From: a virus
Strand: one strand, 5' to 3'
Length of the DNA: 64,000 bases
Virus record (IMG/VR): IMGVR_UViG_3300028840_006907
Location: 256,001 to 320,000 of that record
Part shown: positions 39,611 through 60,485 of the stretch, in pieces
How positions within the stretch are numbered: the stretch's first letter is position 1
Layout: every line of letters begins with the position of its first letter
Made by a program: the position numbers and the translations under genes
Notes under the pieces: model-generated
Told to the model about the DNA's origin: nothing
Seen by the model: the letters and a program-made list of their open reading frames with translations, nothing else
Database searches by the model: none

Positions 39611-39611
39611 A

Positions 39612-40930: not shown

Positions 40931-42280
40931 ATGGAACAAAAATTATCGGTTATAGGATTAGGTAAATTGGGCTGTACAATGATGGTATGTTTTGCTCATA
41001 AAGGATGGGAAGTTATAGGGGTTGATGTTAATGAATTAACTATTGAAACTATTCTACGAGGTCGGAGTCCTATCGATGAACCTTTTGTAGAAGAGATGAT
41101 AAGTGATAATGCAGAAAGGATAAGAGTAACATCTGATTGTGAAAATGCTGTTTTAAATAGTGATGTAAGTTTTGTAATAGTTCCTACTCCCAGTAAGGAA
41201 GATGGGTCTTTTTCGACAGAATATGTTGAAAATGCTACAATGGAAGTTGCGAAAGCTTTGACAAAAAAGAACTCTTATCATTTAATTGTAATTACTTCTA
41301 CTGTTCTTCCTGGAGACAGTCTTCGAATTTCTTATGAGATTGCTCGGGAGTCAGGGAAAGAACTAGGAAAGGATTTCGGTGTTGTTTATAATCCTGATTT
41401 CATAGCACTCGGTAAAATTGTCAGCGATTTTTTAAACCCTGACATGATCCTTATCGGTGAGTACGATGAGAAGTCAGGAGATATCATTCAAGACATACAC
41501 CTGAAACTTATAGATAGTAATCCTACTTTTCATAGGATGAATTTCTTTAATGCTGAACTGGCGAAAATTTCTCTTAATGCCTACTGTACTTTGAAAATTA
41601 CTTTTGCGAACATAATCGCGGAGATATGTGAGAATTTACCTGGCGGTGATTCTAATAAAGTCTTAAGTGCTGTAGGAGCTGATAGTCGGGTGGGTCAAAA
41701 ATATCTCAAAGGTGGTTTGGGGTACAGCGGACCATGTTTTCCGCGTGATAATCGAGCCCTCGCCCATTCTGCAAGGTTCTTTGGCACTACAAATTATTTC
41801 TGTGAGATGACAGATGCAATAAACAACTATCATAAAACAGAAAGAATATGCAATCTTTTATTGGGGTACATGGAAGAAAAGAACACAAAAGAATTAGCTA
41901 TACTTGGTTTATCCTATAAGGAAGATACTCCTGTGATTGAAGAATCTGTATCTATTTCAGTTATAAAAACTCTTTGGGAAAAAGGAATGAATATAAAAGT
42001 TTTTGATCCGGTTGCTATGGAAAATGCAAAAAGAGAATTAGAAGGTTATGATAATATTTATTATGCCTCTTCTGAATATGATTGTATAGATGGTACTTCC
42101 GTTTGTTTTATAGCTACTCCTTGGAAACAGTTCTTTAGTTTGAATCATCAAGAAGTAATAAAAAGAATGAAAAAGAGTTCTATTATTCTTGACTCATGGG
42201 GAGTATTACCTTATGACAGAGCAACTAATAGAGGCAAAAAAGTAGAGGTAAAACAACTAGGGAAAAATTATCAATCGTAA
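40931..42280 (+). CDS. UDP-sugar 6-dehydrogenase family protein (UDP-glucose/UDP-ManNAc dehydrogenase-like)
   Basis: 449 aa; N-terminal Rossmann GLGKLG; catalytic-Cys region GGLGYSGPCFPRD. Confidence 0.75.
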   Translation: MEQKLSVIGLGKLGCTMMVCFAHKGWEVIGVDVNELTIETILRGRSPIDEPFVEEMISDNAERIRVTSDCENAVLNSDVSFVIVPTPSKEDGSFSTEYVENATMEVAKALTKKNSYHLIVITSTVLPGDSLRISYEIARESGKELGKDFGVVYNPDFIALGKIVSDFLNPDMILIGEYDEKSGDIIQDIHLKLIDSNPTFHRMNFFNAELAKISLNAYCTLKITFANIIAEICENLPGGDSNKVLSAVGADSRVGQKYLKGGLGYSGPCFPRDNRALAHSARFFGTTNYFCEMTDAINNYHKTERICNLLLGYMEEKNTKELAILGLSYKEDTPVIEESVSISVIKTLWEKGMNIKVFDPVAMENAKRELEGYDNIYYASSEYDCIDGTSVCFIATPWKQFFSLNHQEVIKRMKKSSIILDSWGVLPYDRATNRGKKVEVKQLGKNYQS

Positions 42281-42342
42281 AAATTAGATATAAGAAGTCT
42301 CATTGAGACTATTCAATAAAATAATAAATAGGAATAAAAAAG

Positions 42343-43146
42343 ATGCCGAGATTAAGCTTTATTGTCACTGGACGAAATGACAATTATGACCAAAATTTTA
42401 ATGAACGTTTAACCATCGCTTTAAGAAGAAATATAAAATCCCTTCCAGACGCTGAATTCATTTTTGTAGAATGGAATCCTTATTTAGACCGCCCATTAAC
42501 ATGTTCAAAATTAAAAAGGACTTTTGGAGATCGAGTTAAATATTATGTAGTTCATCCTAAATATCATAAATATTATTGTAACATTGATGGTTTTCTTGAA
42601 TACCCTCCAAAAAATATCGGAATACGTAAGGCTACAGGTGAATTTATTATTTGTACAAATTCAGATGTAATTTTTTGTCCAGATCTAGTTCATTGTATGA
42701 ATATGCATTTGGAAAAAAATGTCCTTTATCGTGCTACTCGAATTGATATCCGACCAGATTATCTTAATGTAAGTTTCCCCCTTCATCCAAAATTTAAGCT
42801 TGAAACAAATCAAGGTCCTATGAATGCAGCGGGTGATTTTCTTTTAATGCATCGGGATCTATGGTATAAAACTACTGGTTATTGCGAGGAATACCCGTGG
42901 CAGAGATTACATAAAGATGCTCAGATAGTTTATTTGCTTTCTAATAAAAGAGGGTATGAAGTTCGAAACATAGGATCTATGACACATTGGAGACATCCTA
43001 GCTCCTGGTCTAATGGAAAATGTCGAGCTAGAGTAGGTGATGTGAATTGGGATTTTCAAAAATGTAATTACAAAATGAATAAAAAAACATGGGGTCTCAC
43101 GTTTACAGATGAGGTCGAAAAAGACGGCATAATTTGGCTAATTTAA
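42343..43146 (+). CDS. putative glycosyltransferase (GT-A fold)
   Basis: 267 aa; GT2-like NIGIRKATGEFIICTNSDVIF. Confidence 0.4.
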   Translation: MPRLSFIVTGRNDNYDQNFNERLTIALRRNIKSLPDAEFIFVEWNPYLDRPLTCSKLKRTFGDRVKYYVVHPKYHKYYCNIDGFLEYPPKNIGIRKATGEFIICTNSDVIFCPDLVHCMNMHLEKNVLYRATRIDIRPDYLNVSFPLHPKFKLETNQGPMNAAGDFLLMHRDLWYKTTGYCEEYPWQRLHKDAQIVYLLSNKRGYEVRNIGSMTHWRHPSSWSNGKCRARVGDVNWDFQKCNYKMNKKTWGLTFTDEVEKDGIIWLI

Positions 43147-43176
43147 ATTTACATATAGATATTGAAAGGAGATTGT

Positions 43177-44151
43177 ATGAAACGTATATTGGTTACTGGA
43201 GCAGGCGGTTTTATTGGAGGCCATTTAGTCACTCGATTGAAAGAGGAGGGCTATTGGGTTCGTGGAGTTGATATTAAAGAGCATGAATATAAGAAGACTG
43301 ATGCAGATGAATTTTATCTTAAAGATTTGAGAATAATGCAAAATTGTCTTACTTCATGCGCTGATATTGATGAATGTTATACATTAGCTGCTGACATGGG
43401 TGGTGCAGGATTTGTTTTTACTGGTGAGAATGATGCTGATATCATGCATAATTCTGCGAAGATAAATTTAAATATGGCTGAAGCTTGCCGAATACAAGGA
43501 GTAAAGAAGATATTTTATTCCTCTTCAGCGTGCATGTATCCTGCTCATAATCAAACCGATCCGGATAATCCTTTACTTTCTGAGGATTCTGCTTATCCTG
43601 CAGCTCCCGATAGTGAATACGGGTGGGAAAAACTTTTCTCAGAACATCTTTATTTAGCTTATAACAAAAATTATGGACTGGATGTTCGTGTGGCAAGATT
43701 TCATAATATTTTTGGAGTTTTGGGAACATGGCAAGGTGGAAGAGAAAAAGCTCCTGCTGCATTGAATCGTAAAGTAGCTATGGCTAAAGATGGTGATGTA
43801 ATCGAAGTGTGGGGACCTGGTACTCAAACACGTTCTTTCCTTTATATAGAGGAATGTATTGAAGCAGTACGTCGTTTCATGGAATCAGATTTTTTAGGCC
43901 CTGTAAATATAGGTTCTGAAGAAATGATTTCAATAAACGATCTTGCGAAAATGGCCATAGATATTAGTGGTAAAAAACTTACTATCAAAAATGTGGAAGG
44001 TCCTGTAGGAGTTATGGGCCGTAATTCAGATAATAATTTATATGAAGAAAAGGTTGGATGGAGACCTTCAAAACCTTTACATTATGGTATGGAAAAGACT
44101 TATGCTTGGATAAGTGATCAAATTAAACAAATTTATCCCTTTAGAAAATAG
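43177..44151 (+). CDS. NAD-dependent nucleotide-sugar epimerase/dehydratase (SDR family)
   Basis: Start at ATG with AAAGGAG RBS (track TTG start at 43162); VTGAGGFIGGHL; YGWEK (YxxxK). Confidence 0.75.
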   Translation: MKRILVTGAGGFIGGHLVTRLKEEGYWVRGVDIKEHEYKKTDADEFYLKDLRIMQNCLTSCADIDECYTLAADMGGAGFVFTGENDADIMHNSAKINLNMAEACRIQGVKKIFYSSSACMYPAHNQTDPDNPLLSEDSAYPAAPDSEYGWEKLFSEHLYLAYNKNYGLDVRVARFHNIFGVLGTWQGGREKAPAALNRKVAMAKDGDVIEVWGPGTQTRSFLYIEECIEAVRRFMESDFLGPVNIGSEEMISINDLAKMAIDISGKKLTIKNVEGPVGVMGRNSDNNLYEEKVGWRPSKPLHYGMEKTYAWISDQIKQIYPFRK

Positions 44152-44154
44152 CTT

Positions 44155-44856
44155 ATGGAATTAATAACAAAAGCAGTTATAATGGCTGGTGGAGAGGGTA
44201 CTCGGTTAAGACCTTATACAGAAATGACTCCTAAAGCAATGTTAGAGGTTAACGGTATTCCTCTCTTACGTTTAATGATAGAGAGACTTCATAGTTTTGG
44301 TATAACTCATTTCTATTTAAGTGTAAATTATCTCTCGAAAGTAATCTGTGATTATTTCGGTGATGGATCTAAATTTGGGATTAATATCACTTATATAAAA
44401 GAACCTTATTCGATGGGGACCGCAGGTTCAATTAGTATGGTTGATATTGAAGAACCTTTTTTGGTTATAAATGGAGATGTTTATACCAGTCTTGATTTTA
44501 GAGATCTCTTTGTAGAATTTAGAAGATCTAAATCAGATCTATTAATATGTTGTAGGGAGCAATTATTAAAAACAGATTATGGTGTTATTGTAAAAGAAGA
44601 TGACAGGATAACTTCCTGGGTTGAAAAACCTGAGTTTACTCATTACATAAGTTGTGGTATCTATGTATTCAAACCAGAGATTGTAAAATATATACCTAAA
44701 GAACATTTTTTTAATATGAATCATTTAGCTGAAGCGGTTATTGAAAAGAATAAAAAAGCTGGATTTTATTTAATGGATGATCTAGATATCTGGATTGATA
44801 TAGGAACTATTGAAGAATATAATAAGGTCAAGGAATTGTTAACAGTAAAAAAATAA
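44155..44856 (+). CDS. sugar-phosphate nucleotidyltransferase
   Basis: 233 aa; AVIMAGGEGTRLRPYT motif. Confidence 0.75.
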   Translation: MELITKAVIMAGGEGTRLRPYTEMTPKAMLEVNGIPLLRLMIERLHSFGITHFYLSVNYLSKVICDYFGDGSKFGINITYIKEPYSMGTAGSISMVDIEEPFLVINGDVYTSLDFRDLFVEFRRSKSDLLICCREQLLKTDYGVIVKEDDRITSWVEKPEFTHYISCGIYVFKPEIVKYIPKEHFFNMNHLAEAVIEKNKKAGFYLMDDLDIWIDIGTIEEYNKVKELLTVKK

Positions 44857-44865
44857 GAGGATAAA

Positions 44866-45759
44866 GTGAGAGTTGTATTTATTGGTTGCGTCAATTTCAG
44901 TAAAGCAATGTTGGAATATGCTTTAGAAATAGAGTGCCTTGAAATAGTGGGTATCGTGACAAAATCAGAATCCAATTTTAATACAGATTTCTGTTCTTTG
45001 GCCCCTTTAGCCCAGGAACATAATATTTCTTATCTTTTATACGATCAATTAAAATCGGAAAGTGGACTCAATAGTTGGGTTGAATTAAAATTTCCTGATG
45101 TGATCTTTTGTTTTGGTTGGTCCCATTTATTAAAAGCTGAACTTATAGAAATTCCTAAAATAGGAGTCATAGGACATCATCCTACAATGCTTCCTAAGAA
45201 TAGAGGGCGACATCCAGTAATATGGGCGTTAGCTTTAGGATTGGAGTATACTGCTTCAACTTTTTTCTTTATAGATCCTGGGGTGGATTCTGGGGATATT
45301 CTAGATCAAATCCCTGTAAATATAAATTTTGATGATGATGCTAGTATTCTCTATCAGAAGATCACAGTGACTGCAGGAAAGCAATTAAAAACATTTTCTC
45401 CTCTTTTGGAGAAAGGAGAATATATAGTTGTTAAACAAGATATGAGTAAAGCTACATGGTGGAGAAAAAGGTCAAAAGCTGATGGATATATTGATTGGCG
45501 TATGAGTTGTTTTTCCATTCATAATTTAGTCCGGGCTTTGACTTGTCCTTATGTAGGGGCTCATTGTGAATTTAACAATAGGGATATAAAGATCTGGAAA
45601 GTTAGAATAATGTATAAAGGATTAGATGATATTGAACCAGGTAAAATAATCGATTTAAATAGAAATAAAAATGAAATCTATATAAAGTGCGGGGATGGAG
45701 TTATGTGTATCTATGATCATGAATTTGATCCTCTGCCTGAGATCGGAACTTATTTATGA
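44866..45759 (+). CDS. sugar N-formyltransferase (formyl_trans_N family)
   Basis: 297 aa; GTG start after AGAGGA; HPTMLPKNRGRHP matches HxSLLPxxRG; C-terminal domain as in Fmt-like enzymes. Confidence 0.65.
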   Translation: MRVVFIGCVNFSKAMLEYALEIECLEIVGIVTKSESNFNTDFCSLAPLAQEHNISYLLYDQLKSESGLNSWVELKFPDVIFCFGWSHLLKAELIEIPKIGVIGHHPTMLPKNRGRHPVIWALALGLEYTASTFFFIDPGVDSGDILDQIPVNINFDDDASILYQKITVTAGKQLKTFSPLLEKGEYIVVKQDMSKATWWRKRSKADGYIDWRMSCFSIHNLVRALTCPYVGAHCEFNNRDIKIWKVRIMYKGLDDIEPGKIIDLNRNKNEIYIKCGDGVMCIYDHEFDPLPEIGTYL

Positions 45760-46415
45760 AAATTATTGCCATTGCACCTCATCCTGATGATGAGACTCTG
45801 GGATGTGGTGGTACACTCTTGAAGCATCGGGATGCCTCAGATGATATTTATTTGGTTCTTGTTACTACAGCAGGTTCTGAATACAGTGAAGAGCATATCA
45901 ATAATAAATACAAAGAAATAGATAATGCCAACGAGATTTTTGAATTTAAGACTATCTTCGATTTGGGTTTCCCTGTTACTCATATTGGTTCTATAGATAT
46001 ATCAGAAATAATTGGTAAACTAATGGACACATTTAAATTAGTGGGTCCCGATATTATTTATGTTCCTTTCCCGTATGATATTCATACTGATCATCAAGTT
46101 GTTTTTGATGCGGTTTCTTCGTGTACAAAATGGTTCAGAATACCTACTTTGAAAAGAATACTAGCCTATGAAACTATATCTGAAACAGATTTTATTATTA
46201 GACCCGGTCCTTCTTTTATCCCTAATGTTTTTGTCAATATTGAAGATCACATTGATAAAAAGATAGAGGCTATGAAATGCTATGCTAGTGAAATTGCTAT
46301 GCCTCCTTTTCCTCGTAGTGAGGAGAATATCAGAGCCCTGGCAACATTAAGAGGTTCAACATCTGGTTTCAAAGCTGCGGAAGCTTTCATGTTGTTAAAG
46401 GAGATAGATGAATGA
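45756..46415 (+). CDS. PIG-L/LmbE family deacetylase
   Basis: 219 aa; AIAPHPDDETLGCGGT motif; ATGA overlap with upstream gene. Confidence 0.7.
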   Translation: MKIIAIAPHPDDETLGCGGTLLKHRDASDDIYLVLVTTAGSEYSEEHINNKYKEIDNANEIFEFKTIFDLGFPVTHIGSIDISEIIGKLMDTFKLVGPDIIYVPFPYDIHTDHQVVFDAVSSCTKWFRIPTLKRILAYETISETDFIIRPGPSFIPNVFVNIEDHIDKKIEAMKCYASEIAMPPFPRSEENIRALATLRGSTSGFKAAEAFMLLKEIDE

Positions 46416-47380
46416 GTAAAAAAGTTTTAGTTACTGGTGCAGGAGGATTTATAGGATCTCATTTAGTAAAACGGCTCATGGAATATGGGTATGATGTTAC
46501 AGCACTGGTAAAATATAATGCAAATGGTTCTTGGGGCTGGTTAGACACATTTCATCGTTCTGTAATCAAAGATATTAGAGTAGAGTTGGGTGATGTTCGG
46601 GATCCGGAACAAATGATGAGATATAAAAACATGGATATTATTTTCCATTTAGCTGCTTTGATAGGTATCCCTTATTCCTATGTAGCTCCTCGTTCATATG
46701 TCGATACCAATATAAACGGTACTTTAAACATGCTTCAGGTTTGTCGGGAAAATGGAGCTACTTATATTCATACATCAACTTCTGAGGTATATGGTACAGC
46801 CCTTTATGAACCTATTGATGAAAAACATCCTATCCAAACACAGAGTCCATATTCAGCTACAAAAAGTGCTGGAGATAGTTTAGCAAAGAGTTATTATCTT
46901 TCCTTCGATTTGCCCGTTATTATAGTAAGACCATTCAATACTTTTGGAACACGTCAATCTTTAAGAGCTGTTATTCCCACTATTATCAGTCAGGCATGTA
47001 AAGATGATGTTATAAAACTTGGAGATCCAAGTACCATGAGAGATTTCATTTTTGTGGATGATACTGTAGAAGGCTTTATAAAGGCCGCTGAGAGGGGAAA
47101 ATCTGGAGAGACTTATAATATAGGTTATGGCAAAAAAAGGTCAATAAGAAGTATTGTGGATGACGTAGGCAATATATTAGGTAAAGTTTTAAAAATTGAA
47201 TCGGAACCAGAGAGAATGCGACCTCCGAAGAGTGAGGTAAGAGTTCTTGTTTGTAATAATGAAAAAGCAAAAAAAGAATTGGGATGGGATATTAAATGGC
47301 CTTTTAAAAAAGGGTTGGAATATTTGATCTACGATTGGCAACGAGAAAACAAAGAAAGTAAAGATTTTTATCATGTCTAG
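46412..47380 (+). CDS. NAD-dependent nucleotide-sugar epimerase/dehydratase (SDR family)
   Basis: 322 aa; VTGAGGFIGSHL; YSATK (YxxxK). Confidence 0.75.
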   Translation: MSKKVLVTGAGGFIGSHLVKRLMEYGYDVTALVKYNANGSWGWLDTFHRSVIKDIRVELGDVRDPEQMMRYKNMDIIFHLAALIGIPYSYVAPRSYVDTNINGTLNMLQVCRENGATYIHTSTSEVYGTALYEPIDEKHPIQTQSPYSATKSAGDSLAKSYYLSFDLPVIIVRPFNTFGTRQSLRAVIPTIISQACKDDVIKLGDPSTMRDFIFVDDTVEGFIKAAERGKSGETYNIGYGKKRSIRSIVDDVGNILGKVLKIESEPERMRPPKSEVRVLVCNNEKAKKELGWDIKWPFKKGLEYLIYDWQRENKESKDFYHV

Positions 47381-48449
47381 TATATTTTTACACATACCTC
47401 ATATAGGGGAAGAGGAAAAGGCAGAAGTAAATAAGGCTCTTAATACTGGAGAATTGACCTGTGGAAATTATTTAAATCAATTTGAAAAAGAATTAAGTGA
47501 AAGGATAAATTCTCCTGTTGTTTTATGCTCTTCTGGAACAGCAGCTTTGCAATTAGGTCTACATGCTATGGGTATAGGTCCAGGAGATGAAGTAATTGTT
47601 CCTAATATGTCTTTTGTTTCGACTATAAATTCTGTTTTATATATGGGTGCTACCCCAGTTTTGTGCGATGTAGGTGATCCTGAATACGAGCTTTCCATTG
47701 ATCCTGAAGAAATAATCGATCTCATAACTCCTCGAACTAAAGCTATAATGGTATCTCATCTTTGTGGGGGATACGGTGACATTGAAAAGATATTAGATAT
47801 AGCTAGTGCGTATAAAGTTGATGTCATTGAAGATGCTGCTCAGGCAGTAGGTTGTACTATGAATGGCAAAGCTTTGGGAACATTTGGAAAGTTTGGTGTC
47901 TATTCATTTAATGGGAATAAAATTATCACCACAGGTGGTGGAGGCACTCTTTTAACTTCAGATCGTGGAATGAGTCAGAGAGTACGAAATCTTCTTAATC
48001 AAGCGAAAGACATTTTAAATCCTTTTTCTCATATAGAGATGGGGTATAATTATAGAATCAGTAATATCCATGCTGCGATAGGTTGTGCTCAATTAAAAAA
48101 ATTAGACTCTTTTATTGATAAGAAAAAATTTATTCATGAGACCTATAAAAAGAAGTTAGACATAATAACTTATAAGGAAAAATCCAATTATTGGTTGAAT
48201 GTTTATAAAGTAAAAAAATTTAATCCTTATGAAGCTGTTTGGAATCTGGATTACAAAAGCATAGAGACTCGTCCTATTTATACCCCTTTTCATATGATGG
48301 ATTTTCTTAAAAAATATGGTGAGGATGAATACCCGGTTTCAGAGAAATTATATAACAGTCTTTTTTGTTTGCCATCTTATTTATCTCTTGATGAAGAGAT
48401 AATCGATAAAGTAGTGGATGAAATAAATAATTTGGAGAATAGTGAATGA
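47373..48449 (+). CDS. DegT/DnrJ/EryC1-type PLP-dependent sugar aminotransferase
   Basis: 358 aa; conserved layout with PLP-lysine region YSFNGNKIITTGGGG. Confidence 0.75.
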   Translation: MSSIFLHIPHIGEEEKAEVNKALNTGELTCGNYLNQFEKELSERINSPVVLCSSGTAALQLGLHAMGIGPGDEVIVPNMSFVSTINSVLYMGATPVLCDVGDPEYELSIDPEEIIDLITPRTKAIMVSHLCGGYGDIEKILDIASAYKVDVIEDAAQAVGCTMNGKALGTFGKFGVYSFNGNKIITTGGGGTLLTSDRGMSQRVRNLLNQAKDILNPFSHIEMGYNYRISNIHAAIGCAQLKKLDSFIDKKKFIHETYKKKLDIITYKEKSNYWLNVYKVKKFNPYEAVWNLDYKSIETRPIYTPFHMMDFLKKYGEDEYPVSEKLYNSLFCLPSYLSLDEEIIDKVVDEINNLENSE

Positions 48450-49141
48450 AAAAACATATCCTTTTGATGTTTAATATGGGAAATAGTGGTGGGAAGTATT
48501 TCGAAGATATTTGTAATACTCACGAAGATGTTCAGATATGGCAAGAAGCAAATCACCTTTTAAAAGTAGATCATCTTGAGACACCAGTTCAGTTCGACAG
48601 GGTATATGCTTTTTTCATGAAACAGTATGAAGAAAATAAGAAAAAAACCATCGGATTAATAAAAGCTTTTGATCATCGGTTAATAGGATTGGCTGAAAGA
48701 ACTGGTGGGTCTATCATGCAGATGTTCAGACATCCTGTAGGTGTGGTGGGTTTTAAGACAGGCCATAAAATGGCTGAGTGTGAACAGAGAGGTTTGTTTG
48801 ACAAACTAGACACACCTGAAAAGATTTTTGAAGCTCATGTGGATTTTTATGCCTCAATATATAATTCCTATACGAAGAATGCTCATAAGTGGCCTGTTGT
48901 TAAATTAGAGGATTTAAAAAAGTCTTTACGGGAAAGAACTCCGTATTTTGAAGATGTAATGAAAAAAGCGCTGAAAGTTGACTGGCAACCGAAACATACA
49001 AAAAAAGTTATTAATATGGGAGGGCTTGAAGAGAATAGAGATCATTTTGATATTTGGAAATCATGGGAAGATTGGAAGAAAGATATTTTTCTGAAGTATT
49101 TCCAGGAAATAATGAAATTGTATATGTATGAATGGGAATGA
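48446..49141 (+). CDS. sulfotransferase-like protein (paralog of 52367-53158)
   Basis: 231 aa; MFNMGNSGGKYF and RHPVG motifs; shared C-terminal W..W.W.KK..F.KYF signature with 52367-53158. Confidence 0.4.
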   Translation: MKKHILLMFNMGNSGGKYFEDICNTHEDVQIWQEANHLLKVDHLETPVQFDRVYAFFMKQYEENKKKTIGLIKAFDHRLIGLAERTGGSIMQMFRHPVGVVGFKTGHKMAECEQRGLFDKLDTPEKIFEAHVDFYASIYNSYTKNAHKWPVVKLEDLKKSLRERTPYFEDVMKKALKVDWQPKHTKKVINMGGLEENRDHFDIWKSWEDWKKDIFLKYFQEIMKLYMYEWE

Positions 49142-49155
49142 TAGGAGGACGAAGT

Positions 49156-50151
49156 ATGAAAAATTTGGAAATCATAGCTGAGTTCGGAACTAATCATGTC
49201 GATCCTAATGGTAAAGTTCTTGAAAATATTGAGGATTTGATACATACACTAGCAGACAAAGGAGCGACTGCAGTTAAATTTCAGCTTTTTAAAGCTGATA
49301 ATTTAGTAGAAAAGAATACTGAAGTACATGGCCTTATAAAAAATTTGGAAATTGCTCTTGAAGAGCATGTCAGATTAAAAAAGATCTGCGAAGAAATAGG
49401 TTTGCGGTATCTTTGCACTCCTTTTTGCGTTGAGTCTTTGGATGCTCTTCTTAGTATAGGAGTAAAGGAAATAAAAATAGCCAGTTGTGATTGTGGTAAT
49501 TTACAATTGATGTCAGATATTGTACAACGTCATAACAAAATTCATCGAGTTATAATGGCTACAGGTATGTCAACATTGAATGAAATTGGTGTTTCCATTG
49601 ACATCCTTATTGATGGAGGATTTAATATTGATCTTTTACATTGTACAAGTGTTTACCCTACACCGATATACCGAGCTTCTCTAGACATGATAAGAGTCTT
49701 AAAAAAGAAGTGGGGTTTATTTAATATAGGATATTCGGATCATACATTGGGGACTGAAGTGGTGGGTATAGCCCGAGCTATGGGTTGTACCATTTTTGAA
49801 AAGCATGTAACTCCTGATAGAACAATGCCCGGTTTTGATCATGCTTATTCTTTTCCTATTGATGAATTTGATAAATATGTCGATGCTATCAAGAATGTCG
49901 ATCAGATAATAGGAGAAGAAAGAAAATACGTAGATAAAAAAGAAGCAGTATCTCGTGATGCCATGAAAAGAGGCATATGGTTTAAAAAAGAAGTGTTTAA
50001 AGGGCAGAAAATAACCAGAGATGATATCATTGTACGAAGACCGTTGAAAGGGGCCGTTAACCAGACTTACTATTTTTCTGTTCTTGGTAAAAAAGTAAAG
50101 AAGAATTTTAATGAGGATGATCCCGTTTTAACGGAGAATTTATATGAGTAA
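49156..50151 (+). CDS. nonulosonic acid synthase (NeuB/PseI/LegI family)
   Basis: Start at ATG with AGGAGG RBS (track start 49132); IIAEFGTNH motif near N-terminus; length ~331 aa typical of NeuB. Confidence 0.7.
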   Translation: MKNLEIIAEFGTNHVDPNGKVLENIEDLIHTLADKGATAVKFQLFKADNLVEKNTEVHGLIKNLEIALEEHVRLKKICEEIGLRYLCTPFCVESLDALLSIGVKEIKIASCDCGNLQLMSDIVQRHNKIHRVIMATGMSTLNEIGVSIDILIDGGFNIDLLHCTSVYPTPIYRASLDMIRVLKKKWGLFNIGYSDHTLGTEVVGIARAMGCTIFEKHVTPDRTMPGFDHAYSFPIDEFDKYVDAIKNVDQIIGEERKYVDKKEAVSRDAMKRGIWFKKEVFKGQKITRDDIIVRRPLKGAVNQTYYFSVLGKKVKKNFNEDDPVLTENLYE

Positions 50152-51052
50152 AATAGGAATTCGATGTGATTGTGGACCGGTAATGGGCATGGGTCATATA
50201 TCTAGGCAGAAACTTATTTATGAAGAACTCATGAAATTGGACCACGAAGTTTCTTTTTTTGTAAAAAGAGAACGGAACATAGTTAAATCAATGGGACTTC
50301 CACTTTCAAATAAGATTTTAATGGATACAATGGATACTTTGATAATTGATTTAGTGGAAGGTTTTGAGGATTATGATTTTCCTCGAACTAAAATAGTTTT
50401 TTATGATGGTCCGGAAATGATACATTGTGATGCTGATATCATTTTTGCTTTAAATTATAAACAACAGAAATCCTGGTATAGAGGAACGGGTTATTATGTT
50501 GGGCTAGATTATATCCCGATGGATCCCAGCATTTCTAAAATAGAGAAAGAATTTGGTAATTTAGAAAAAATATTAATTATGACAAGTGGAATCGATCCTT
50601 GGGATATGCCAGGACAAATAGTTAGAGTTATTAAGGATCTGGGTTATGACATCACAGTTAAATTATCTAATGCTTATCCAAAAGATTGGATCAGTAAACT
50701 TGAGAAACATGCTGAGATAATTTTAAATGTGGATAGTGTTGCTTCATTATATGAAGAATATGATTTAATGATATGTACTGCAGGAAATGTGTTGTTCGAG
50801 GCTGCTGTAGCTGGTTTACCCTGTATAAGTTTTTCGACGGGTAAAGTTCAGGAGGGCCATGGGGCGTTTATGAGTGACAAAGGTTTTTCAGTTCATCTTG
50901 GAGGCTTTTGGAATAATACTGCTGAAGTTGGTTATTTGTCTGATGCTATAAAATTTTTAGCTGATAGATCGGATAGAGAACAAAGATCTGAGATAGGTCG
51001 TTCTATTTGTGATGGTAAAGGATTAGAAAGGATAATAAATATTATAGGGTAA
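50144..51052 (+). CDS. PseG-like UDP-sugar hydrolase / GT-B family protein
   Basis: 302 aa; IRCDCGPVMGMGHISR resembles the PseG R.D...G.GH..R signature; GT28-like C-terminal segment. Confidence 0.5.
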   Translation: MSKIGIRCDCGPVMGMGHISRQKLIYEELMKLDHEVSFFVKRERNIVKSMGLPLSNKILMDTMDTLIIDLVEGFEDYDFPRTKIVFYDGPEMIHCDADIIFALNYKQQKSWYRGTGYYVGLDYIPMDPSISKIEKEFGNLEKILIMTSGIDPWDMPGQIVRVIKDLGYDITVKLSNAYPKDWISKLEKHAEIILNVDSVASLYEEYDLMICTAGNVLFEAAVAGLPCISFSTGKVQEGHGAFMSDKGFSVHLGGFWNNTAEVGYLSDAIKFLADRSDREQRSEIGRSICDGKGLERIINIIG

Positions 51053-51055
51053 AAT

Positions 51056-51718
51056 ATGAAAACTATCGCATTTACATTGCCAGTAAGAAAGAACAGTCAA
51101 AGAGTAAAAAATAAAATGTTAAGACCTTTTGCAGGGAGAAGTTTATTTGAGATCTATTTGGATAAAATCGAATGTTTCAAACATTTGGTTTATGTTGTTG
51201 CCTATGAAGAAGAATTTATTAACATAGCTAAAAAAAGGGGATTTAAATATCTTCATAGAAGTGAAGAGTCTGCTAATGGGGAAACTTCTCCAGTTATCCA
51301 TAGTTATTTAAATGAGATGAAAGAAGATTTCATTTTTATGGCAACTGCGTGTTGTCCTTTGATGAAGACAGAGACTTTGAAAAATATCATGGTAGAGCTA
51401 TGTTCAAAACTCCATGATCCTAATTATCACGGTTTAATAACTGTAAAAAGATGTGGTAATGCTATTTGGAATTCAGAGAAGAAAGTAATGAATGATGATG
51501 TTCGAACTTTCAATACTAAGTTAAGAAAACCTTTTTACATCGAGACTAGTTCCGTTTTTGTTTTTAGACGTGAAAGATTTCTTAAACTAGGTGCATATTG
51601 GGATTTTGGTGATAAAGATCCCGATCTTTATGAAATTAATTCAATTGAAGCTACTGATATTGATACAATGGATGATTTCGAAGTAGCTGAAATACTTTAC
51701 AAAAGAAGGTTGTCATGA
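51056..51718 (+). CDS. CMP-nonulosonic acid synthetase-like cytidylyltransferase
   Basis: 220 aa; N-terminal PVRKNSQRVKNK as in acylneuraminate cytidylyltransferases. Confidence 0.55.
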   Translation: MKTIAFTLPVRKNSQRVKNKMLRPFAGRSLFEIYLDKIECFKHLVYVVAYEEEFINIAKKRGFKYLHRSEESANGETSPVIHSYLNEMKEDFIFMATACCPLMKTETLKNIMVELCSKLHDPNYHGLITVKRCGNAIWNSEKKVMNDDVRTFNTKLRKPFYIETSSVFVFRRERFLKLGAYWDFGDKDPDLYEINSIEATDIDTMDDFEVAEILYKRRLS

Positions 51719-52374
51719 AAAATTATGGCTATGCTGATATGAGTGAAAAAGAAAAATTATCTAAAGAACAAGTATTAGAATTTTGGAAAAATCCTATAAA
51801 CGATAATACTAATAAAAATGAGAACAATGATCCTGAGCATTATTTGAGTGGGGAAAAACGTAGCCGATATCTCGTTGAATTAATTAAAAGGCATTTACAT
51901 AAAGAAGCAAAAATATTAGAGATTGGTTGTAATGTCGGGAGGAATTTGCATTATCTATATGAAACAGGTTATAACAATTTAAATGGGATAGAAATTAATG
52001 ATAATGCTGTTCAAGTGATGCATAAAAATTATCCCGAATTATATGGAAGTGTAGGAATTTATAATTGTCCGGTTGAATCTATTATTACATCTTTTTCCGA
52101 TGAAGCCTATGACTTGGTCTTTACAATGGCTGTTTTAGAGCACATTCATTATGAGAGTGATTTCATTTTCTCTGAGATAGCTCGGGTAGCCAAAAGATGT
52201 ATAATTACAATTGAAGATGAAAAAACTACCTGGAGTAACAGACATTTTCCTCGTAATTATAAGGAGGTGTTTGAGAAGATCGGGAATTGGGTACAGATTT
52301 ATGATATGAATTGTGGTGGGATTAATATACTTGATGATCGATTTTGGGTAAGGGTATTTAAAAAGAATGTCTAA
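51715..52374 (+). CDS. class I SAM-dependent methyltransferase
   Basis: 219 aa; motif I ILEIGCNVGRN. Confidence 0.65.
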   Translation: MKNYGYADMSEKEKLSKEQVLEFWKNPINDNTNKNENNDPEHYLSGEKRSRYLVELIKRHLHKEAKILEIGCNVGRNLHYLYETGYNNLNGIEINDNAVQVMHKNYPELYGSVGIYNCPVESIITSFSDEAYDLVFTMAVLEHIHYESDFIFSEIARVAKRCIITIEDEKTTWSNRHFPRNYKEVFEKIGNWVQIYDMNCGGINILDDRFWVRVFKKNV

Positions 52375-53158
52375 ACGAATAGTGTTAGTCAGAAATATGG
52401 GAAACAGTGGCGGTGCCTGGTTAATGAAGGTATTTAATATGCATGAAAACATATTAATGTTTCAGGAATTAAACCAGATACTGAGGTTAAGATATGATTA
52501 TTCGGATATAAATAAGAAGAATCTAAATTACCCTCATGTTGACTATGATGTAAAAATAGCTCAACGGAGTCGTGATCTTAAAGGATTTTTATTTAATAGT
52601 AGAACTCAGTGTCATATAGCAACTAGTTTTCTTTTATATCAATATGATATTAGAAAAGAAGATGCGATTGGGTTAATAAAATGTTTTGATCATGAATCTA
52701 TAAGAGAATGTAGAGTAAAATGTCCTTCTGTTAAAGTTGTACAAGTTTTAAGAAATCCTATTGGTATAATAGATTTTTATATGAGTCAGGAAAATTTAAG
52801 GCAAATAGCCCATCATGATCCATATGAAATATCTTTTAAAAAACATGTGGATTTCTTTCATAATAAATTTATAGATTTTTGGGAAAATAATGAAAAAAAA
52901 GGTGAGAAAATTATACGACTAGAAGATTTGAATATATCATTGAAAGATGGAAATCCTTTCTTAAAAGACACTATGGAAGATTTATTTGAAGTTAATTTCT
53001 CAAATGAATTTATTGAAAAAATCAAACAAAATTTAGGTTATGGGAATGAAGGTAACCAGAATAAAGAGATATGGCAAAACTGGGAAGGATGGAAAAAAGA
53101 ATATTTCAAGAAATATTTCGAAAATCTAATGATGAATCTTGGCTATGAATTGAGGTGA
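52367..53158 (+). CDS. sulfotransferase-like protein
   Basis: 263 aa; VRNMGNSGGAWL (5'-PSB-like) and LRNPIGIIDFYMS (3'-PB-like); paralog of 48446-49141. Confidence 0.4.
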   Translation: MSKRIVLVRNMGNSGGAWLMKVFNMHENILMFQELNQILRLRYDYSDINKKNLNYPHVDYDVKIAQRSRDLKGFLFNSRTQCHIATSFLLYQYDIRKEDAIGLIKCFDHESIRECRVKCPSVKVVQVLRNPIGIIDFYMSQENLRQIAHHDPYEISFKKHVDFFHNKFIDFWENNEKKGEKIIRLEDLNISLKDGNPFLKDTMEDLFEVNFSNEFIEKIKQNLGYGNEGNQNKEIWQNWEGWKKEYFKKYFENLMMNLGYELR

Positions 53159-53161
53159 TAA

Positions 53162-53737
53162 ATGAATTTATTTGAATCTGCGTACTATACTGAAGAGGAT
53201 CTGAGAAAAGGCGGTTTTAAAAGTGTCGGTAAAAATGTTCAGATTGATAAAAGTTGCACGATAATAGGCTTAGATAAAATCACTCTAGGAGATAATGTTC
53301 GAATCGATGGTTACTGTTGTATTATTGCCACAAAAGAGGAAGTGATTTTCGGTTCTTATATTCATATAGGTTCGTTTTGTCATCTCTGTGGAACTGCAGG
53401 TCTTATAATGAAAGATTTTTCAGGTTTGTCACAAGGAGTTCGAATTTACTCCTCTTCTGATGATTATTCAGGAAAGTTTTTAACTAATCCAACTGTTCCC
53501 GATAAATACACAGGTATAATAAGAGAACCAGTTATTATAGGTAAACATGTTATAATCGGGGCTAATACTGTTATTCTTCCAGGAGTTGTTATAGGTGATG
53601 GGTCAGCTATTGGTGCCATGTCCCTTGTAACAAAAGACGTAGATAAAAATAGTGTCTATGCAGGTTGTCCAGCGAAATTTATAAAAACACGTTCAAAAAG
53701 AATATTTGATTTAGAGAAGAGGTTATTAAATGAATAA
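53162..53737 (+). CDS. hexapeptide-repeat (LbH) sugar acetyltransferase
   Basis: 191 aa; repeated [LIV]-G-x-x-x-x hexapeptides (VIIGKHVIIGANTVILPGVVIGDGSAIG). Confidence 0.7.
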   Translation: MNLFESAYYTEEDLRKGGFKSVGKNVQIDKSCTIIGLDKITLGDNVRIDGYCCIIATKEEVIFGSYIHIGSFCHLCGTAGLIMKDFSGLSQGVRIYSSSDDYSGKFLTNPTVPDKYTGIIREPVIIGKHVIIGANTVILPGVVIGDGSAIGAMSLVTKDVDKNSVYAGCPAKFIKTRSKRIFDLEKRLLNE

Positions 53738-54443
53738 ATCAATTTTCATATGTTCAGGAGGTCGATGTGGTACACATTGGGTTCGGCCTATTCTTGCTCA
53801 GCTTTTAGATTTACAAACTGGGTTTGATTGGAAAGGATATAATCCAAATAAAATTCCCTTTAAAACAGAACCTGGAGCTATTTGGAAAATAAAGATGGTA
53901 GAAAAGAGAGAGCCAGGAGGAAGGATTTATTCAGGGCATATGCCAATTACAGAACTTCTACCTATTATCAGTTTAGTAAATATAATAATTCTTATAAGAG
54001 ATCCTAGAGATATGTGTGTTTCGGCTGCATATTATACTCCAGAAAGAAGAGTATTAACTCAAGAAGAATTTGAATCTAAATTTAATAATTTATTAATACA
54101 AGGAAGCCCGAATCCTGATTTTCATGAATCTTATATAGAAAGTAAGAATAAAATACCTCATTTTTTATTAAAATATGAAGATATGATTCATGATGATTAT
54201 GGCTCAATAGTTAAATTTTTAAATAATTCAGGTTATAAATTTGAAGAAGAAAAATTAAAATATGTACTTGATAAAAACTCATTCAAGAATTTATCAGGTG
54301 GACGAGAAGCCGGTGAGGAGGATAATACCGCTTTTTATAGAAAAGGTATTGTGGGTGATTGGGTAAATTATCTCTCTAATGGTTTACTTGAACAATATAC
54401 CGATAGGCATAAAACTTTGTTGGAAGAATGGGGGTATATGTAA
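53730..54443 (+). CDS. sulfotransferase
   Basis: 237 aa; CSGGRCGTHW (5'-PSB-like) and LIRDPRDMCVSAAYY (3'-PB RDPxD..VS.Y). Confidence 0.55.
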   Translation: MNKSIFICSGGRCGTHWVRPILAQLLDLQTGFDWKGYNPNKIPFKTEPGAIWKIKMVEKREPGGRIYSGHMPITELLPIISLVNIIILIRDPRDMCVSAAYYTPERRVLTQEEFESKFNNLLIQGSPNPDFHESYIESKNKIPHFLLKYEDMIHDDYGSIVKFLNNSGYKFEEEKLKYVLDKNSFKNLSGGREAGEEDNTAFYRKGIVGDWVNYLSNGLLEQYTDRHKTLLEEWGYM

Positions 54444-54444: not shown

Positions 54445-55116
54445 ATGGAAGATTATTTTGAACAAATGGTAACAGTTTTTAAAAAGTACTTTAAAGAGTA
54501 TTATCGTAATGTATTCACAAATCAATCAGTGGAAACCTGTACAGGTATTTATAATCTTTGTAAAAAAGAAAATCCAGATCAAGTAGTGGAAATGGGAACC
54601 AATCATGGGGCTTCTACTCTTTCTATAGTAAAAGCACTGACTGATTTAGGGAAAGATTTGTCTATTATTACTTCAATTGATTTAGACCACGAGAAATGGA
54701 AGGCAACATTTAATATACAAAAAGAATTGATTAAAAAGTATGATTTAAATTTAGGAAAAGTAAAATTAATAACTCAAGATTTTAATTCAGTAGATCCTGT
54801 AGAAATAATTGACCCTGAAAAGAAAGTATTTATTTTTTATGATATGCATGATCATCGAGGCCCATGGTCACAGAGACTACTTGATTTATGGGTACCTTTA
54901 GTTAAGAATGGTGTCTTCTCTATTCATGATGTAACTCCTGTAAGTGAATCCTTTGAAATAGTTCAGGATAAAATTTCCCCTCGAACAAAGATACAGTATA
55001 AGAGTGGGCAGTATTTTGCAGGTTTCAATGAATGTTTTCGAATAATAAAATGGGCAAATACAAATAACATAAATATAGAGATATTTCCAGGAGGAGTATA
55101 TTTCAGAAATGGCTAA
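54445..55116 (+). CDS. class I SAM-dependent methyltransferase-like protein
   Basis: Start at ATG just after upstream stop (track start 54379); VVEMGTNHGASTLSI motif. Confidence 0.5.
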   Translation: MEDYFEQMVTVFKKYFKEYYRNVFTNQSVETCTGIYNLCKKENPDQVVEMGTNHGASTLSIVKALTDLGKDLSIITSIDLDHEKWKATFNIQKELIKKYDLNLGKVKLITQDFNSVDPVEIIDPEKKVFIFYDMHDHRGPWSQRLLDLWVPLVKNGVFSIHDVTPVSESFEIVQDKISPRTKIQYKSGQYFAGFNECFRIIKWANTNNINIEIFPGGVYFRNG

Positions 55117-55795
55117 CATTTTTATTGGAAAAAATATGTCAAATATAAAAAATATTCCTGGTTTAAATAAAATAACAAAGATACATGATGTGGCTGATTA
55201 TGTGAGATTAGCTGATTTTGTCTATAAAACAATTTCCCATTCTATGGATAGTGGGATTGATTTAGATTATTCTGTTAATCAATTGTATTGGCAATTTGTG
55301 AATAAAAAGAGATTTGGATGGTGCTATATGCATGCTCTGTATTATCATCTTATAGTACAAGAATATGGTCGTGAATCTTTTGTTTATGATTATGGCTTAC
55401 CAGCGCCACAATTAACTCATAGTGTTGTTGTAGTAACTTTACGTGATGATAAGTATTTAATTGATCCTTATTTTAATCGTTATTATGTAACAGAAAAAGG
55501 GAATCCGTATACATTTCCTGACTTATTGGCTATGATAAAAACTGATCCAACAAAAATTTATAGTAAATATGGACCTGGTTTGAAAGAAGTTAAACAGGGA
55601 GATAAATATATAGAAACTTCTCCTGAACAATTTGAAAAAGGAGTATTGGAATCGTGGCGAGTAAATCAGAATTATGATAAAATAATGATGGAAAAATTTA
55701 ATAGCACAAATGCATTATTATTAATGCATTGTAAAGTACAAAAAGCTAAAGTATGTAAAAAAATAGATGGGACAAAGTATTTTGACTTTTTCTAA
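55109..55795 (+). CDS. hypothetical protein
   Basis: 228-aa ORF inside glycan island. Confidence 0.5.
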   Translation: MANIFIGKNMSNIKNIPGLNKITKIHDVADYVRLADFVYKTISHSMDSGIDLDYSVNQLYWQFVNKKRFGWCYMHALYYHLIVQEYGRESFVYDYGLPAPQLTHSVVVVTLRDDKYLIDPYFNRYYVTEKGNPYTFPDLLAMIKTDPTKIYSKYGPGLKEVKQGDKYIETSPEQFEKGVLESWRVNQNYDKIMMEKFNSTNALLLMHCKVQKAKVCKKIDGTKYFDFF

Positions 55796-58195: not shown

Positions 58196-58963
58196 ATGAT
58201 AGATGCGAAAAGAGTCGTTTTTTCATACTTAAATTTAAAAGTTGCCAAAGATATGACACCAGAAGAGGCAAAGAAAATAGTGGATAAAATGCCTCCAGGA
58301 AGATTTGATAAAATTAAAAAATTGTTACAGCCTTTTGCTAGATTGTTTAAAAAATCTTTTAATGTAAGAGATGCTGGTGTCCTTGATACTTTAGGAAAAT
58401 TAAGTAGGGCTAAGGGAATTCCTCTTGTTGAATTGTTAGCAGTAGCTTCTATCATGTTTGGTGCTACTGTTCCGTCTTATGCTGACACTGCTAAAGAAAA
58501 AGCTCCAATAGTTCAAGTAAAAGAGAAAAGGCCCATTTCTGAGGTAAGAGCGGATCTAGAAAAAGTTTTTGAATTACCAAAAGGTTTAATGACTCTTGTA
58601 AAAGTTACTCCTCAATTAGCAATAAATTTAAAAGGTATAGATGGATTTGTAGAGACCGTGGGTAAAAATCTCGATAAGAGTATAACTCCTGAAGTTTCAG
58701 TATTGTTAAATCAAGTCCCAGATAATCAATGGCCTGAATTATTGTCTGGTTTAGTAATGCAGAAAATTCAAGAAGATGATAAAGTTGATAAGAAATTTAA
58801 AAAGTTTATTAAACACCATAAAACTAGCCCTCAAAATATGAAAAAAGAGATAGCAAAAGTTGTCTCACAAGAGAAATCTGGCATTCAAAAATTTGTTGAT
58901 AAAGGCATGGCTGAGAAGGGCCTAGCTAAAAAAGCCCATGAAAGAGGCTATTTAATTTCATAA
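58196..58963 (+). CDS. hypothetical protein
   Basis: 255 aa; RBS AAAAGGGG; preceded by motif copy 6; preferred over antisense ORF 58132-58455. Confidence 0.55.
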   Translation: MIDAKRVVFSYLNLKVAKDMTPEEAKKIVDKMPPGRFDKIKKLLQPFARLFKKSFNVRDAGVLDTLGKLSRAKGIPLVELLAVASIMFGATVPSYADTAKEKAPIVQVKEKRPISEVRADLEKVFELPKGLMTLVKVTPQLAINLKGIDGFVETVGKNLDKSITPEVSVLLNQVPDNQWPELLSGLVMQKIQEDDKVDKKFKKFIKHHKTSPQNMKKEIAKVVSQEKSGIQKFVDKGMAEKGLAKKAHERGYLIS

Positions 58964-59496
58964 ATAGCTGTCTTTGTAGTTTTCATACCGAAAAGTTTAA
59001 ATGGATATTTCCCTAAAAACAATTCTATTGCATCTTGGTATACGTATTCTACAGGATTTTGAAGAATTATAATTCCTCCTTTTCTCACTTTTGGAACAGC
59101 CTCTTTGATACAAGAAGATCTTGATCTACCATTTATGAAAATGATATCAAAAGAATGATCAGCAAAGTTATTTATATAATTTACATAGTCTCTAAAATTC
59201 TTATATAAATAAGCCGGTACAGTACTTCCGAAGCTCTCATGGCTGTAAGGAAAGGGTTTAGGGTCATCGATAGGTTCTATTAATTCATAAGTAAAATTTC
59301 CTTTATTAGGTCCTATCTGTTTTTTTAATGTCTCATATGTTTCTCTGTCATGTTCCACTGATACTACAGCTTTAACAGTTCTTCTGAAATAAATAGTAGA
59401 ATCTCCTGATCCATATTCAAAAGTGATCATGTCATATTCAATGAAACTTTTTAACCAGTCTATAGCTTCAGGTTCAATTGGGGGGTAAACTTCCAT
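58948..59496 (-). CDS. class I methyltransferase-fold protein
   Basis: 182 aa; FEYGSGDSTIYF, DIIFINGR, KGGIIIL motifs. Confidence 0.45.
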   Translation of the reverse strand: MEVYPPIEPEAIDWLKSFIEYDMITFEYGSGDSTIYFRRTVKAVVSVEHDRETYETLKKQIGPNKGNFTYELIEPIDDPKPFPYSHESFGSTVPAYLYKNFRDYVNYINNFADHSFDIIFINGRSRSSCIKEAVPKVRKGGIIILQNPVEYVYQDAIELFLGKYPFKLFGMKTTKTAIYEIK

Positions 59497-59856
59497 TTAT
59501 TCTTCCTCTATTCTTTTTAGTCCAATATTTCCAAGTTCTTCATCATTAAGTTTTTCTAATTTTATATGTTCATTCATGATAATTACATAAAATGGAATAT
59601 CAATAGATGATTGAAAGATGTCAATTAAATCTTGTGCTTGTGCCTCGGTAACAGGCATTTTAGGTCTTATAATGACAAGATCATCTTCTTTCAATTGTAA
59701 CTTTTCTAATTGGTAATTTATAACGATGTTTTCTACATATTGTTCAGCTACCTCTTTTGGATTGTGGCTCAAAGTATATCCGCATTTGTCACATTTGCCT
59801 GTATAAAAATCGATAGCTTCATCTCTACATTCAGGGCATTCTATTTTTTTATCCAT
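59497..59856 (-). CDS. zinc-ribbon-containing hypothetical protein
   Basis: 119 aa; CPECRDEAIDFYTGKCDKCG at N-terminus. Confidence 0.5.
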   Translation of the reverse strand: MDKKIECPECRDEAIDFYTGKCDKCGYTLSHNPKEVAEQYVENIVINYQLEKLQLKEDDLVIIRPKMPVTEAQAQDLIDIFQSSIDIPFYVIIMNEHIKLEKLNDEELGNIGLKRIEEE

Positions 59857-59858
59857 TT

Positions 59859-60485
59859 CTAAAATTTCCTTTCTACAGTATCTTTGAATTTAATCATTTT
59901 CCCAGTTCCGGTTCCTATGTGAGGAAAAGGAGTTTCAAATTCATATTTAATGACACATTTTGGCCAAGTCATGGTTGATTTTCCTCTTCTTTGTACTTTT
60001 GTTGTTGTCACACTTCTATTGTTATCTTCTATAATGAATGTGCAAGGTAAATCCCAACCATCTACATAACGAACAGCTTCATAAAAATGTCCTTCATCTT
60101 CAGCTCCATCTCCAATAAAACACCATACTTTATTTTTGCTTTTCTCCATTTTTAAAGATAAGGCTATTCCGGTAGCTATAGAAGCGGTTCCTGCTAGTAT
60201 AGAAGATGACAGGAAATTTAATTTTTTATCGAAGACATGCATTGAATCCCCGTTTAATAATATCTTTTCAAGATCTTTTTCATTTCCTCCTGCTAGTAAA
60301 TAATGGTAGTGGGATCGATGGGTAGAAAGAATATAATCTCCTTCATTAACTTTTTTGAATATTTCAATAATTTGATCTTCATTTCCTCCATTTAAATATA
60401 TCAAATAAGGAAGAAGCCCTTCTTCAAAGAGTTCAATTACTCTCTTTTCAAAAGAGATAAGTTCATTTTTTGTTTTATTAAACAT
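59859..60485 (-). CDS. transketolase-like N-terminal (TPP-binding) subunit
   Basis: 208 aa; GGAG RBS; TPP motif WCFIGDGAEDEG...IIEDNNRSV. Confidence 0.6.
   Translation of the reverse strand: MFNKTKNELISFEKRVIELFEEGLLPYLIYLNGGNEDQIIEIFKKVNEGDYILSTHRSHYHYLLAGGNEKDLEKILLNGDSMHVFDKKLNFLSSSILAGTASIATGIALSLKMEKSKNKVWCFIGDGAEDEGHFYEAVRYVDGWDLPCTFIIEDNNRSVTTTKVQRRGKSTMTWPKCVIKYEFETPFPHIGTGTGKMIKFKDTVERKF

Follow-up and report, generated by a model that had tools for sequence, protein, structure and literature searches.

A predicted sulfotransferase and two sulfotransferase-fold paralogs in a nonulosonic-acid operon of a huge phage

Could a phage direct the sulfation of a glycan that its own genes build? 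This question is raised by a 64-kb window, the whole stretch of viral DNA analysed here (64,000 nucleotides, positions 256,001 to 320,000 of IMG/VR record IMGVR_UViG_3300028840_006907). A first-pass annotation of its sequence had proposed three sulfotransferase-like genes within an island of glycan genes. All three open reading frames (ORFs) were recovered on the + strand where proposed: ORF A (48446-49141, 231 aa), ORF B (52367-53158, 263 aa) and ORF C (53730-54443, 237 aa). The phage probably decorates its glycan with sulfate, and ORF C is the only safe call among the three. ORFs A and B represent a rare, previously unnamed family of sulfotransferase fold with an atypical donor loop. This family is a new element here.

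ORF C and the fold of ORFs A and B

ORF C carries both signatures on which its assignment had been based, CSGGRCGTHW for a loop binding 5'-phosphosulfate (the 5'-PSB loop) and LIRDPRDMCVSAAYY for the 3'-phosphate-binding (3'-PB) motif. Pfam Sulfotransfer_1 was matched at 81.1 bits (cut-off 22; E 1.1e-22) over profile positions 3-254 of 255. Against the PDB, ORF C recovered cytosolic SULT structures down to E 3e-11 (human SULT2A1). Alignment to SULT2A1 placed the 5'-PSB residues G-R12-C-G-T15-H-W17 on PKSGTNW, H70 on the catalytic His position and the 3'-PB motif at R90...S98. A YED element with E150 and a 3'-phosphate loop (R204-K205-G206..G209-D210-W211) are also present. The ORF C clade comprises 10 proteins at E<1e-5, in which R12, G14, T15 and W17, R90, D91, D94 and S98, and R204, K205, G206, G209 and D210 are invariant. 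Searching 50,697 deposited phage genomes with ORF C by tblastn gave no match. Like Sulfotransfer_1 enzymes such as human SULT2A1 and the bacterial StaL/Teg proteins, ORF C spans the full-length profile and retains the 5'-PSB, catalytic His, 3'-PB R...S, YED and RKGxxGDW elements. Unlike the cytosolic-type enzymes, it has Arg for Lys in the 5'-PSB, is shorter at 237 aa and is encoded by a phage, within a glycan operon and as part of a tiny clade. On these alignments ORF C is very likely a sulfotransferase dependent on 3'-phosphoadenosine 5'-phosphosulfate (PAPS).

ORFs A and B are paralogs, as had been proposed, and aligned end to end by BLASTP (29% identity, E 2e-34). The shared NMGNSGG, R(H/N)P.G and Trp-rich C-terminal (IW..WE.WKK) motifs were present in both. 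In ORF A the recognizable elements are a G12-N13-S-G-G loop, H26, E34, K73, R95-H-P97, K104, K153-L-E155-D and W204/W207/W210. ORF B has the corresponding G-N-S-G-G-A-W, E, K, R-N-P, R-L-E-D and W..W..W, and carries a 35-residue insertion after the second strand relative to A. Database gene calls place the first residue of ORF B at Met11, for 253 aa. Because homologs conserve the N-terminal MSKRIVLxRN strand, the start at 52367 is favoured. Pairwise comparison of A or B with ORF C gave no similarity.

The A/B family is rare. Word-indexed searches returned 22 close sequences, and an exhaustive hidden Markov model (HMM) search of 1.84 billion representatives returned 60. Narrower alignments of A and B found no members among viral contigs or GTDB genome contigs, and no cellular host of the family was identified there. 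Family members are only ~18-30% identical to one another, yet E34, K73, R95 and E155 are strongly conserved. Both A and B have orthologs in related phages, at no more than 76% amino-acid identity.

In three dimensions, A and B each combine a P-loop-like alpha/beta core with a C-terminal helical lid, which is the sulfotransferase fold. Their structural matches to sulfotransferases extend over ~190 residues, compared to ~140 for kinases, for which Z was lower by ~4. The C-terminal helical half also matches sulfotransferases. These comparisons bear on a different identity, in which A and B would be P-loop sugar or nucleotide kinases forming a WbdD-like phospho-methyl capping pair with a methyltransferase. 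A regular-expression search in six frames found no Walker A motif (GxxxxGK[ST]) in A or B. K17 of A is not conserved, being Ala in B and mostly Ser in the family. With the motif absent and the structural matches both shorter and lower, we rejected the kinase identity as highly improbable.

Sequence comparison pointed in the same direction as the fold. Below threshold, six distant family members touched Sulfotransfer_3 and two touched Sulfotransfer_1, in either case reaching only E 1e-3, and five of the eight weak PDB profile matches of the family were TPST1, NodH and the CurM sulfotransferase (ST). Alignment of the family to the ORF C clade by hhalign gave 216 collinear columns (E 5e-4, probability 31%). 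It paired GhSGGsW with GRCGTxW, vRNPI with RDPRD and RLEDL with KYEDM, and matched the C-terminal W...GY. We strongly favour a sulfotransferase fold and ancestry for A and B, very probably by descent from TPST/Sulfotransfer_3-like enzymes. A and B differ from those enzymes in being soluble proteins of 230-260 aa that are encoded in sugar-modification clusters and paired with methyltransferases.

The donor site of ORFs A and B

TPSTs use a catalytic triad of Arg78 (in the 5'-PSB), Glu99 (the base) and Lys158. The Arg78Ala mutant is inactive, and a 5'-PSB Lys/Arg is treated in the literature as universal and essential in sulfotransferases. The general base is His in SULTs, and Glu in TPST and heparan-sulfate sulfotransferases. 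We mapped these positions onto A and B via sequence and profile alignments, and give residue counts out of 58 family sequences. E34 (53/58) aligned with the TPST catalytic Glu in an identical H-P-x6-E context. K73 (52/58) fell within one residue of TPST Lys158/159, in a low-confidence alignment stretch. The 3'-PB Arg, R95, is present in 56/58 and is followed by N/H-P. Within the [RK]-L-E-D-L element E155 is invariant and [RK]153 near-invariant. The proposal that A and B are divergent members of the sulfotransferase fold was thus upheld for the fold and part of the catalytic apparatus; as judged by these alignments, the PAPS signature is incomplete.

Several observations weigh against A and B being PAPS-dependent sulfotransferases. 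In contrast to TPST1/2, the CurM and olefin-synthase ST domains, NodH and Stf9, both have Asn13 at the 5'-PSB Lys/Arg position, within a loop that keeps its G-x-S-G-G-x-W shape. Across the family this Arg78 equivalent is variable, with H in 21 sequences, N in 16 and R in 7, plus A, C, S and T. The equivalent of the 3'-PB Ser, which TPST/Sulfotransfer_3 enzymes have, is Phe103 in A and Phe in B, and is unconserved family-wide, even in members with the 5'-PSB Arg. The RKG 3'-phosphate motif falls on a gap, and the match of K73 to TPST Lys158 is one residue out in its low-confidence HMMER alignment. Profile searches, significant for ORF C, gave no significant match of A or B to any sulfotransferase family. 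Neither ORF matched Pfam, NCBIfam or PHROG, and phmmer and hmmsearch runs of A, B and a 22-sequence profile against the PDB yielded nothing significant (best E 0.4). The hhalign probability for the ORF C clade was likewise only 31%.

Two further points concern the genomic surroundings. The first-pass annotation had suggested a search for PAPS-synthesis genes (sat/cysC). A six-frame motif search found no APS (adenosine 5'-phosphosulfate) kinase, ATP sulfurylase or CysD motifs in the 64-kb window, out of a genome of about 470 kb, where the sole Walker-A kinase is a thymidylate kinase. Where a canonical sulfotransferase was seen, it always stood alongside the A/B family, and A and B may perform a step other than sulfation.

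Such a step could involve a different donor. A and B may be active sulfotransferase-fold enzymes that do not use PAPS and instead move another group from another nucleotide-activated donor (for example one lacking a 3'-phosphate, such as APS, or a nucleoside-5'-phospho-X), or that act on a nucleotide-linked sugar together with the partner methyltransferase. The 5'-PSB Lys/Arg, 3'-PB Ser and RKG are lost and E34, K73, R95, [RK]153 and E155 are near-invariant, which points to an active site that is conserved but altered. Free variation at the 5'-PSB position is unlike any characterised sulfotransferase. Methyltransferase coupling or fusion is tight, and a canonical sulfotransferase beside the family, in the window and in the related or distant contigs L001, L002 and L010, means that sulfation is already covered. 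In contrast, we found no precedent for a sulfotransferase-fold enzyme using a non-PAPS donor, and the canonical Arg persists in seven family members. The Ser contact might be taken over by the basic residue (K or R) that 37/58 members have nine positions after R95, at position 104 (K104 in A, with Tyr in B). Backbone amides in the G-x-S-G-G loop could yet bind a 5'-phosphosulfate. We consider use of another donor an unlikely though credible explanation. That A and B are active PAPS-dependent sulfotransferases is the likeliest reading, which we hold to be slightly less probable than not.

The loss of the 5'-PSB basic residue would also suit inactive proteins, since Ala at this position inactivates TPSTs. 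A and B could then be pseudoenzymes serving as substrate-binding, scaffolding or specificity subunits for the methyltransferase or ORF C, in keeping with a family that is always next to, or fused with, another enzyme. Conservation of E34, K73, R95 and E155 across sequences of such low identity is, however, what one expects of enzymes and not of scaffolds. The operon has moreover kept two diverged paralogs, each of which has orthologs in related phages. Inactivity of A and B is, in our assessment, decidedly improbable.

Operon context and methyltransferase coupling

The three genes lie in a + strand operon with overlapping stop/start codons. It includes a sugar-1-phosphate nucleotidyltransferase (44155-44856), an ArnA/Fmt-like formyltransferase (44866-45759) and a PIG-L family de-N-acetylase (45756-46415), each matched in Pfam and NCBIfam. 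A LegB-like NAD-dependent 4,6-dehydratase (46412-47380; NCBIfam TIGR04180, 390 bits, and Pfam) and a LegC-family aminotransferase (47373-48449; NCBIfam TIGR04181, 304 bits, and Pfam) follow. ORF A is placed between this aminotransferase and a NeuB-type nonulosonate synthase (49132-50151; Pfam NeuB 2.8e-58, NCBIfam NeuB_NnaB 244 bits and PseI 179), with stop/start codon overlaps at both ends. Next come a PseG-like GT-B nucleotide-sugar hydrolase (50144-51052; NCBIfam PseG 63.6 bits), a PseF-like CMP-nonulosonate cytidylyltransferase (51056-51718; CTP_transf_3, NCBIfam PseF 48 bits) and a class I S-adenosylmethionine-dependent methyltransferase (51715-52374; Pfam Methyltransf_11/25/31), the partner of ORF B. 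Between B and C lies a left-handed beta-helix (hexapeptide) sugar acetyltransferase (53162-53737; Pfam Hexapep 3e-13, NCBIfam WbbJ-like 4e-18, NeuD family 9e-13). A Methyltransf_24 protein resembling CmcI and rhamnosyl O-methyltransferases (54445-55116; Pfam E 8e-8) is encoded directly after ORF C. Its start is more likely at 54445 than at 54379, based on the gene call in L004.

Further transferases lie downstream. The adjacent gene (55109-55795) encodes a 228-aa protein with a borderline match to arylamine N-acetyltransferases (Acetyltransf_2, E 1.5e-4, 22.1 bits versus a cut-off of 22.8). A faint Acetyltransf_2 match was also seen at the syntenic position in L002, and this protein could be an unusual acyltransferase of the pathway.

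The LegB-like and LegC-like genes represent early steps of a diamino-trideoxy-hexose/nonulosonic-acid pathway. All equivalog scores were under their cut-offs (in bits: LegB 390/475, LegC 304/420, NeuB 244/400, PseI 179/340, PseG 64/154, PseF 48/206). These matches make a nonulosonic-acid pathway clear but do not single out its sugar. As in legionaminic and pseudaminic acid operons (LegB/C/H/G/I/F and PseB/C/H/G/I/F), LegB-like, LegC-like, NeuB-type, PseG-like and CMP-transferase genes occur in one operon. The operon here differs in being a hybrid, with Leg-type early enzymes and a PseG-like hydrolase, and ORF A occupies the slot of the LegH/PseH N-acetyltransferase. It also adds a formyltransferase, a de-N-acetylase, methyltransferases and sulfotransferases.

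Coupling to a methyltransferase recurs in the A/B family. In the window, the last 8 nt of the methyltransferase gene are shared with the beginning of ORF B. An A/B domain is fused to a class I methyltransferase in protein P0033 (on L005), and separate neighbouring genes encode the two in L008, a contig of 389 kb, and in L010. Operon synteny is conserved in L001, L002 and L004. L001 has A, B and the Sulfotransfer_1 gene, and L002 is without A and keeps the methyltransferase, B and the sulfotransferase. The order Sulfotransfer_1 then Methyltransf_24 is shared by L001, L010 and the window. In L010 the full order is Sulfotransfer_1 (35% identical to C), Methyltransf_24, an A/B member (27% identical to B) and a class I methyltransferase, mirroring the modules of the window in a distant lineage.

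All neighbourhoods of distant members that were examined are sugar-modification clusters, with UDP-glucose dehydrogenase, epimerases, FkbM and class I methyltransferases, GT61 and cytidylyltransferase. No NeuB-type gene was found near distant members within the stretches examined. Given this and the fusion or adjacency with a methyltransferase, the family is best seen as a general part of glycan tailoring that partners with a methyltransferase, without being restricted to nonulosonic acids. The absence of NeuB-type genes from these stretches also led us to set aside the idea that A and B transfer nonulosonate from the CMP-sugar. Separately, one distant member lies beside genes for a GAPDH-like dehydrogenase, an FAA-hydrolase-family protein, a cytidylyltransferase and a D-2-hydroxyacid dehydrogenase (L012 6664-9992). 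This set suggests a pathway to a CMP-activated acidic or glycerate-type substituent.

In the explanation that we favour, the phage island would build and decorate a glycan around a hybrid Leg/Pse-like nonulosonic-acid pathway with interleaved tailoring enzymes. ORF C would O-sulfate a sugar of this glycan with host-made PAPS, and the neighbouring acetyl- and methyltransferases would act alongside it. A and B would be extra sugar sulfotransferases with a remodelled donor pocket, directed at other positions or other sugars, and ORF B would work with the methyltransferase encoded directly upstream. The glycan may decorate the virion or remodel the host surface. Taken as a whole, we hold this explanation to be moderately probable. 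Activity at other positions is one reading of the constant company of a canonical sulfotransferase; on the other, a different step falls to A and B.

A more radical proposal is that A and B form a new family with a rebuilt donor site that installs an unprecedented modification on a bacterial nonulosonic acid. In one version ORF A, in the LegH/PseH slot and downstream of the de-N-acetylase, would N-sulfate the amino sugar instead of acetylating it, following the logic of heparan-sulfate NDST. In the other, ORF B and its methyltransferase would install a methylated anionic cap from a non-PAPS donor. We think this proposal improbable.

A glycan island in a huge phage

Virion genes mark the start of the window, with a portal (11131-14484), a prohead protease (17421-18989) and virion structural proteins. 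Contigs of 388,651 and 469,617 bp, drawn from several public sources, carry proteins of the window as well. Among portals in the phage collection, the nearest belongs to the uncultured phage LR745208 of 485 kb (49% identity). Because of these virion genes upstream of the island, the large contigs and the portal match, the gene content identifies the source as a huge phage, with an estimated genome of about 470 kb (contigs 389-470 kb). A blastn search of the 48-55 kb region against 50,697 phage genomes gave no match. Host-DNA contamination is unlikely: the island runs on without a break from the portal and protease genes, several contigs of 389-470 kb carry it too, and its synteny is kept in related contigs. 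Directly after the prohead protease, in a scaffold-like position, lies a gene for an extremely acidic 277-aa protein (19102-19935) with repeated EEKEAKEEK(V/P)AEEKPAEKEAAKEKEEPEEEEE units.

Between ~28.6 and 57.5 kb of the window nearly every gene on the + strand is glycan-related, and these genes form a tightly packed island of ~30 kb downstream of the virion module. The island opens with a 391-aa protein (28608-29783) that has Cys-rich N-terminal repeats and two HNH-like modules (FYNG[IL]DR...GY...N[IV]VTCC..CN..K). Two very large multidomain glycan enzymes follow. One, of 693 aa (29866-31947), combines a methyltransferase domain with a glycosyltransferase domain (PHROG beta-1,4-glycosyltransferase); in the other, of 994 aa (36336-39320), the glycosyltransferase domain covers ~residues 500-783 and a methyltransferase lies at the C-terminus. 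Also within the island, a 270-aa protein (33845-34657) has extended Lys/Glu-rich stretches that resemble coiled coils, along with a brief collagen-like G-X-Y run, GARGIQGSTGLMGETGIQGEP; this protein may be a fibre that serves as a target of glycosylation. The thymidylate kinase gene (39546-40247; E 2e-42) lies amid these glycan genes and may be tied to dTDP-sugar supply or be a plain nucleotide-metabolism gene.

A trio at 40931-44151 comprises a UDP-glucose dehydrogenase, a ~265-aa protein (42343-43146) without a match in Pfam or PHROG, and a short-chain dehydrogenase/reductase (SDR) epimerase resembling GDP-fucose synthase. It recurs in a related and a distant huge-phage contig (L001 65-3247 and L008 4621-8876). 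The UDP-glucose dehydrogenase gene of L008 (6444-8876, - strand) contains an intein, whose Hint, Intein_splicing and LAGLIDADG domains separate the central dehydrogenase domain from the C-terminal one. Beside the island of the window, a divergent - strand cluster (58948-63513) encodes a split thiamine-diphosphate enzyme (E1_dh-like, 59859-60485; Transket_pyr-like, 61514-62038) around a radical SAM protein (60478-61545). Its remaining genes encode a weak Methyltransf_24 match (58948-59496) and two proteins without an assigned family (62039-63513). The cluster may be another sugar-branching or alkylation module.

The arrangement of three sulfotransferase-fold genes in a huge-phage nonulosonic-acid operon is new, as is the methyltransferase coupling of the A/B family. 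Should ORF C prove active, perhaps along with A and B, a huge phage directs the synthesis of a sulfated, methylated and acylated nonulosonic-acid glycan. The A/B family tolerates loss of a residue held essential in all sulfotransferases, and its biochemistry would reveal either plasticity of the PAPS site or a new donor. It could likewise be a source of new enzymes for glycan tailoring. More broadly, the locus is further evidence that complete glycan factories of their own are carried by huge phages, as by giant eukaryotic viruses. In our literature search, the only sulfated nonulosonic acids were sialic acids of animals. To our knowledge, no sulfated bacterial nonulosonic acid has been described, and we know of no virus-made sulfated glycan that has been shown biochemically.

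Virion glycosylation by phages is known from mycobacteriophages. Sulfotransferase-family genes, their function stated to be unclear, have been annotated in OM43 phages, Synechococcus phages S-SRM01 and S-SCSM1 and Xanthomonas phage FoX4. Like the genes described here, these are phage-encoded and annotated by homology only. Unlike A and B, they are recognisable Sulfotransfer_3 members and are not reported in a nonulosonic-acid operon.

Many giant viruses also have annotated sulfotransferase-family genes. Moumouvirus australiensis encodes the sulfotransferase Ma461 together with the SAT/APS kinase Ma457, and a Cotonvirus cluster is similarly equipped; glycan sulfation has been proposed for these clusters and is unvalidated. 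As in the present locus, virus-encoded genes for a rare bacterial-type amino sugar (bacillosamine-like 4,6-dehydratase, aminotransferase and acetyltransferase) accompany a predicted sulfotransferase. The Moumouvirus and Cotonvirus clusters encode a PAPS-synthesis enzyme, whereas the 64-kb window has none. In contrast to the giant viruses, the locus described here is that of a bacteriophage, follows a nonulosonic-acid pathway and contains three sulfotransferase-fold genes, two of which belong to a new family.

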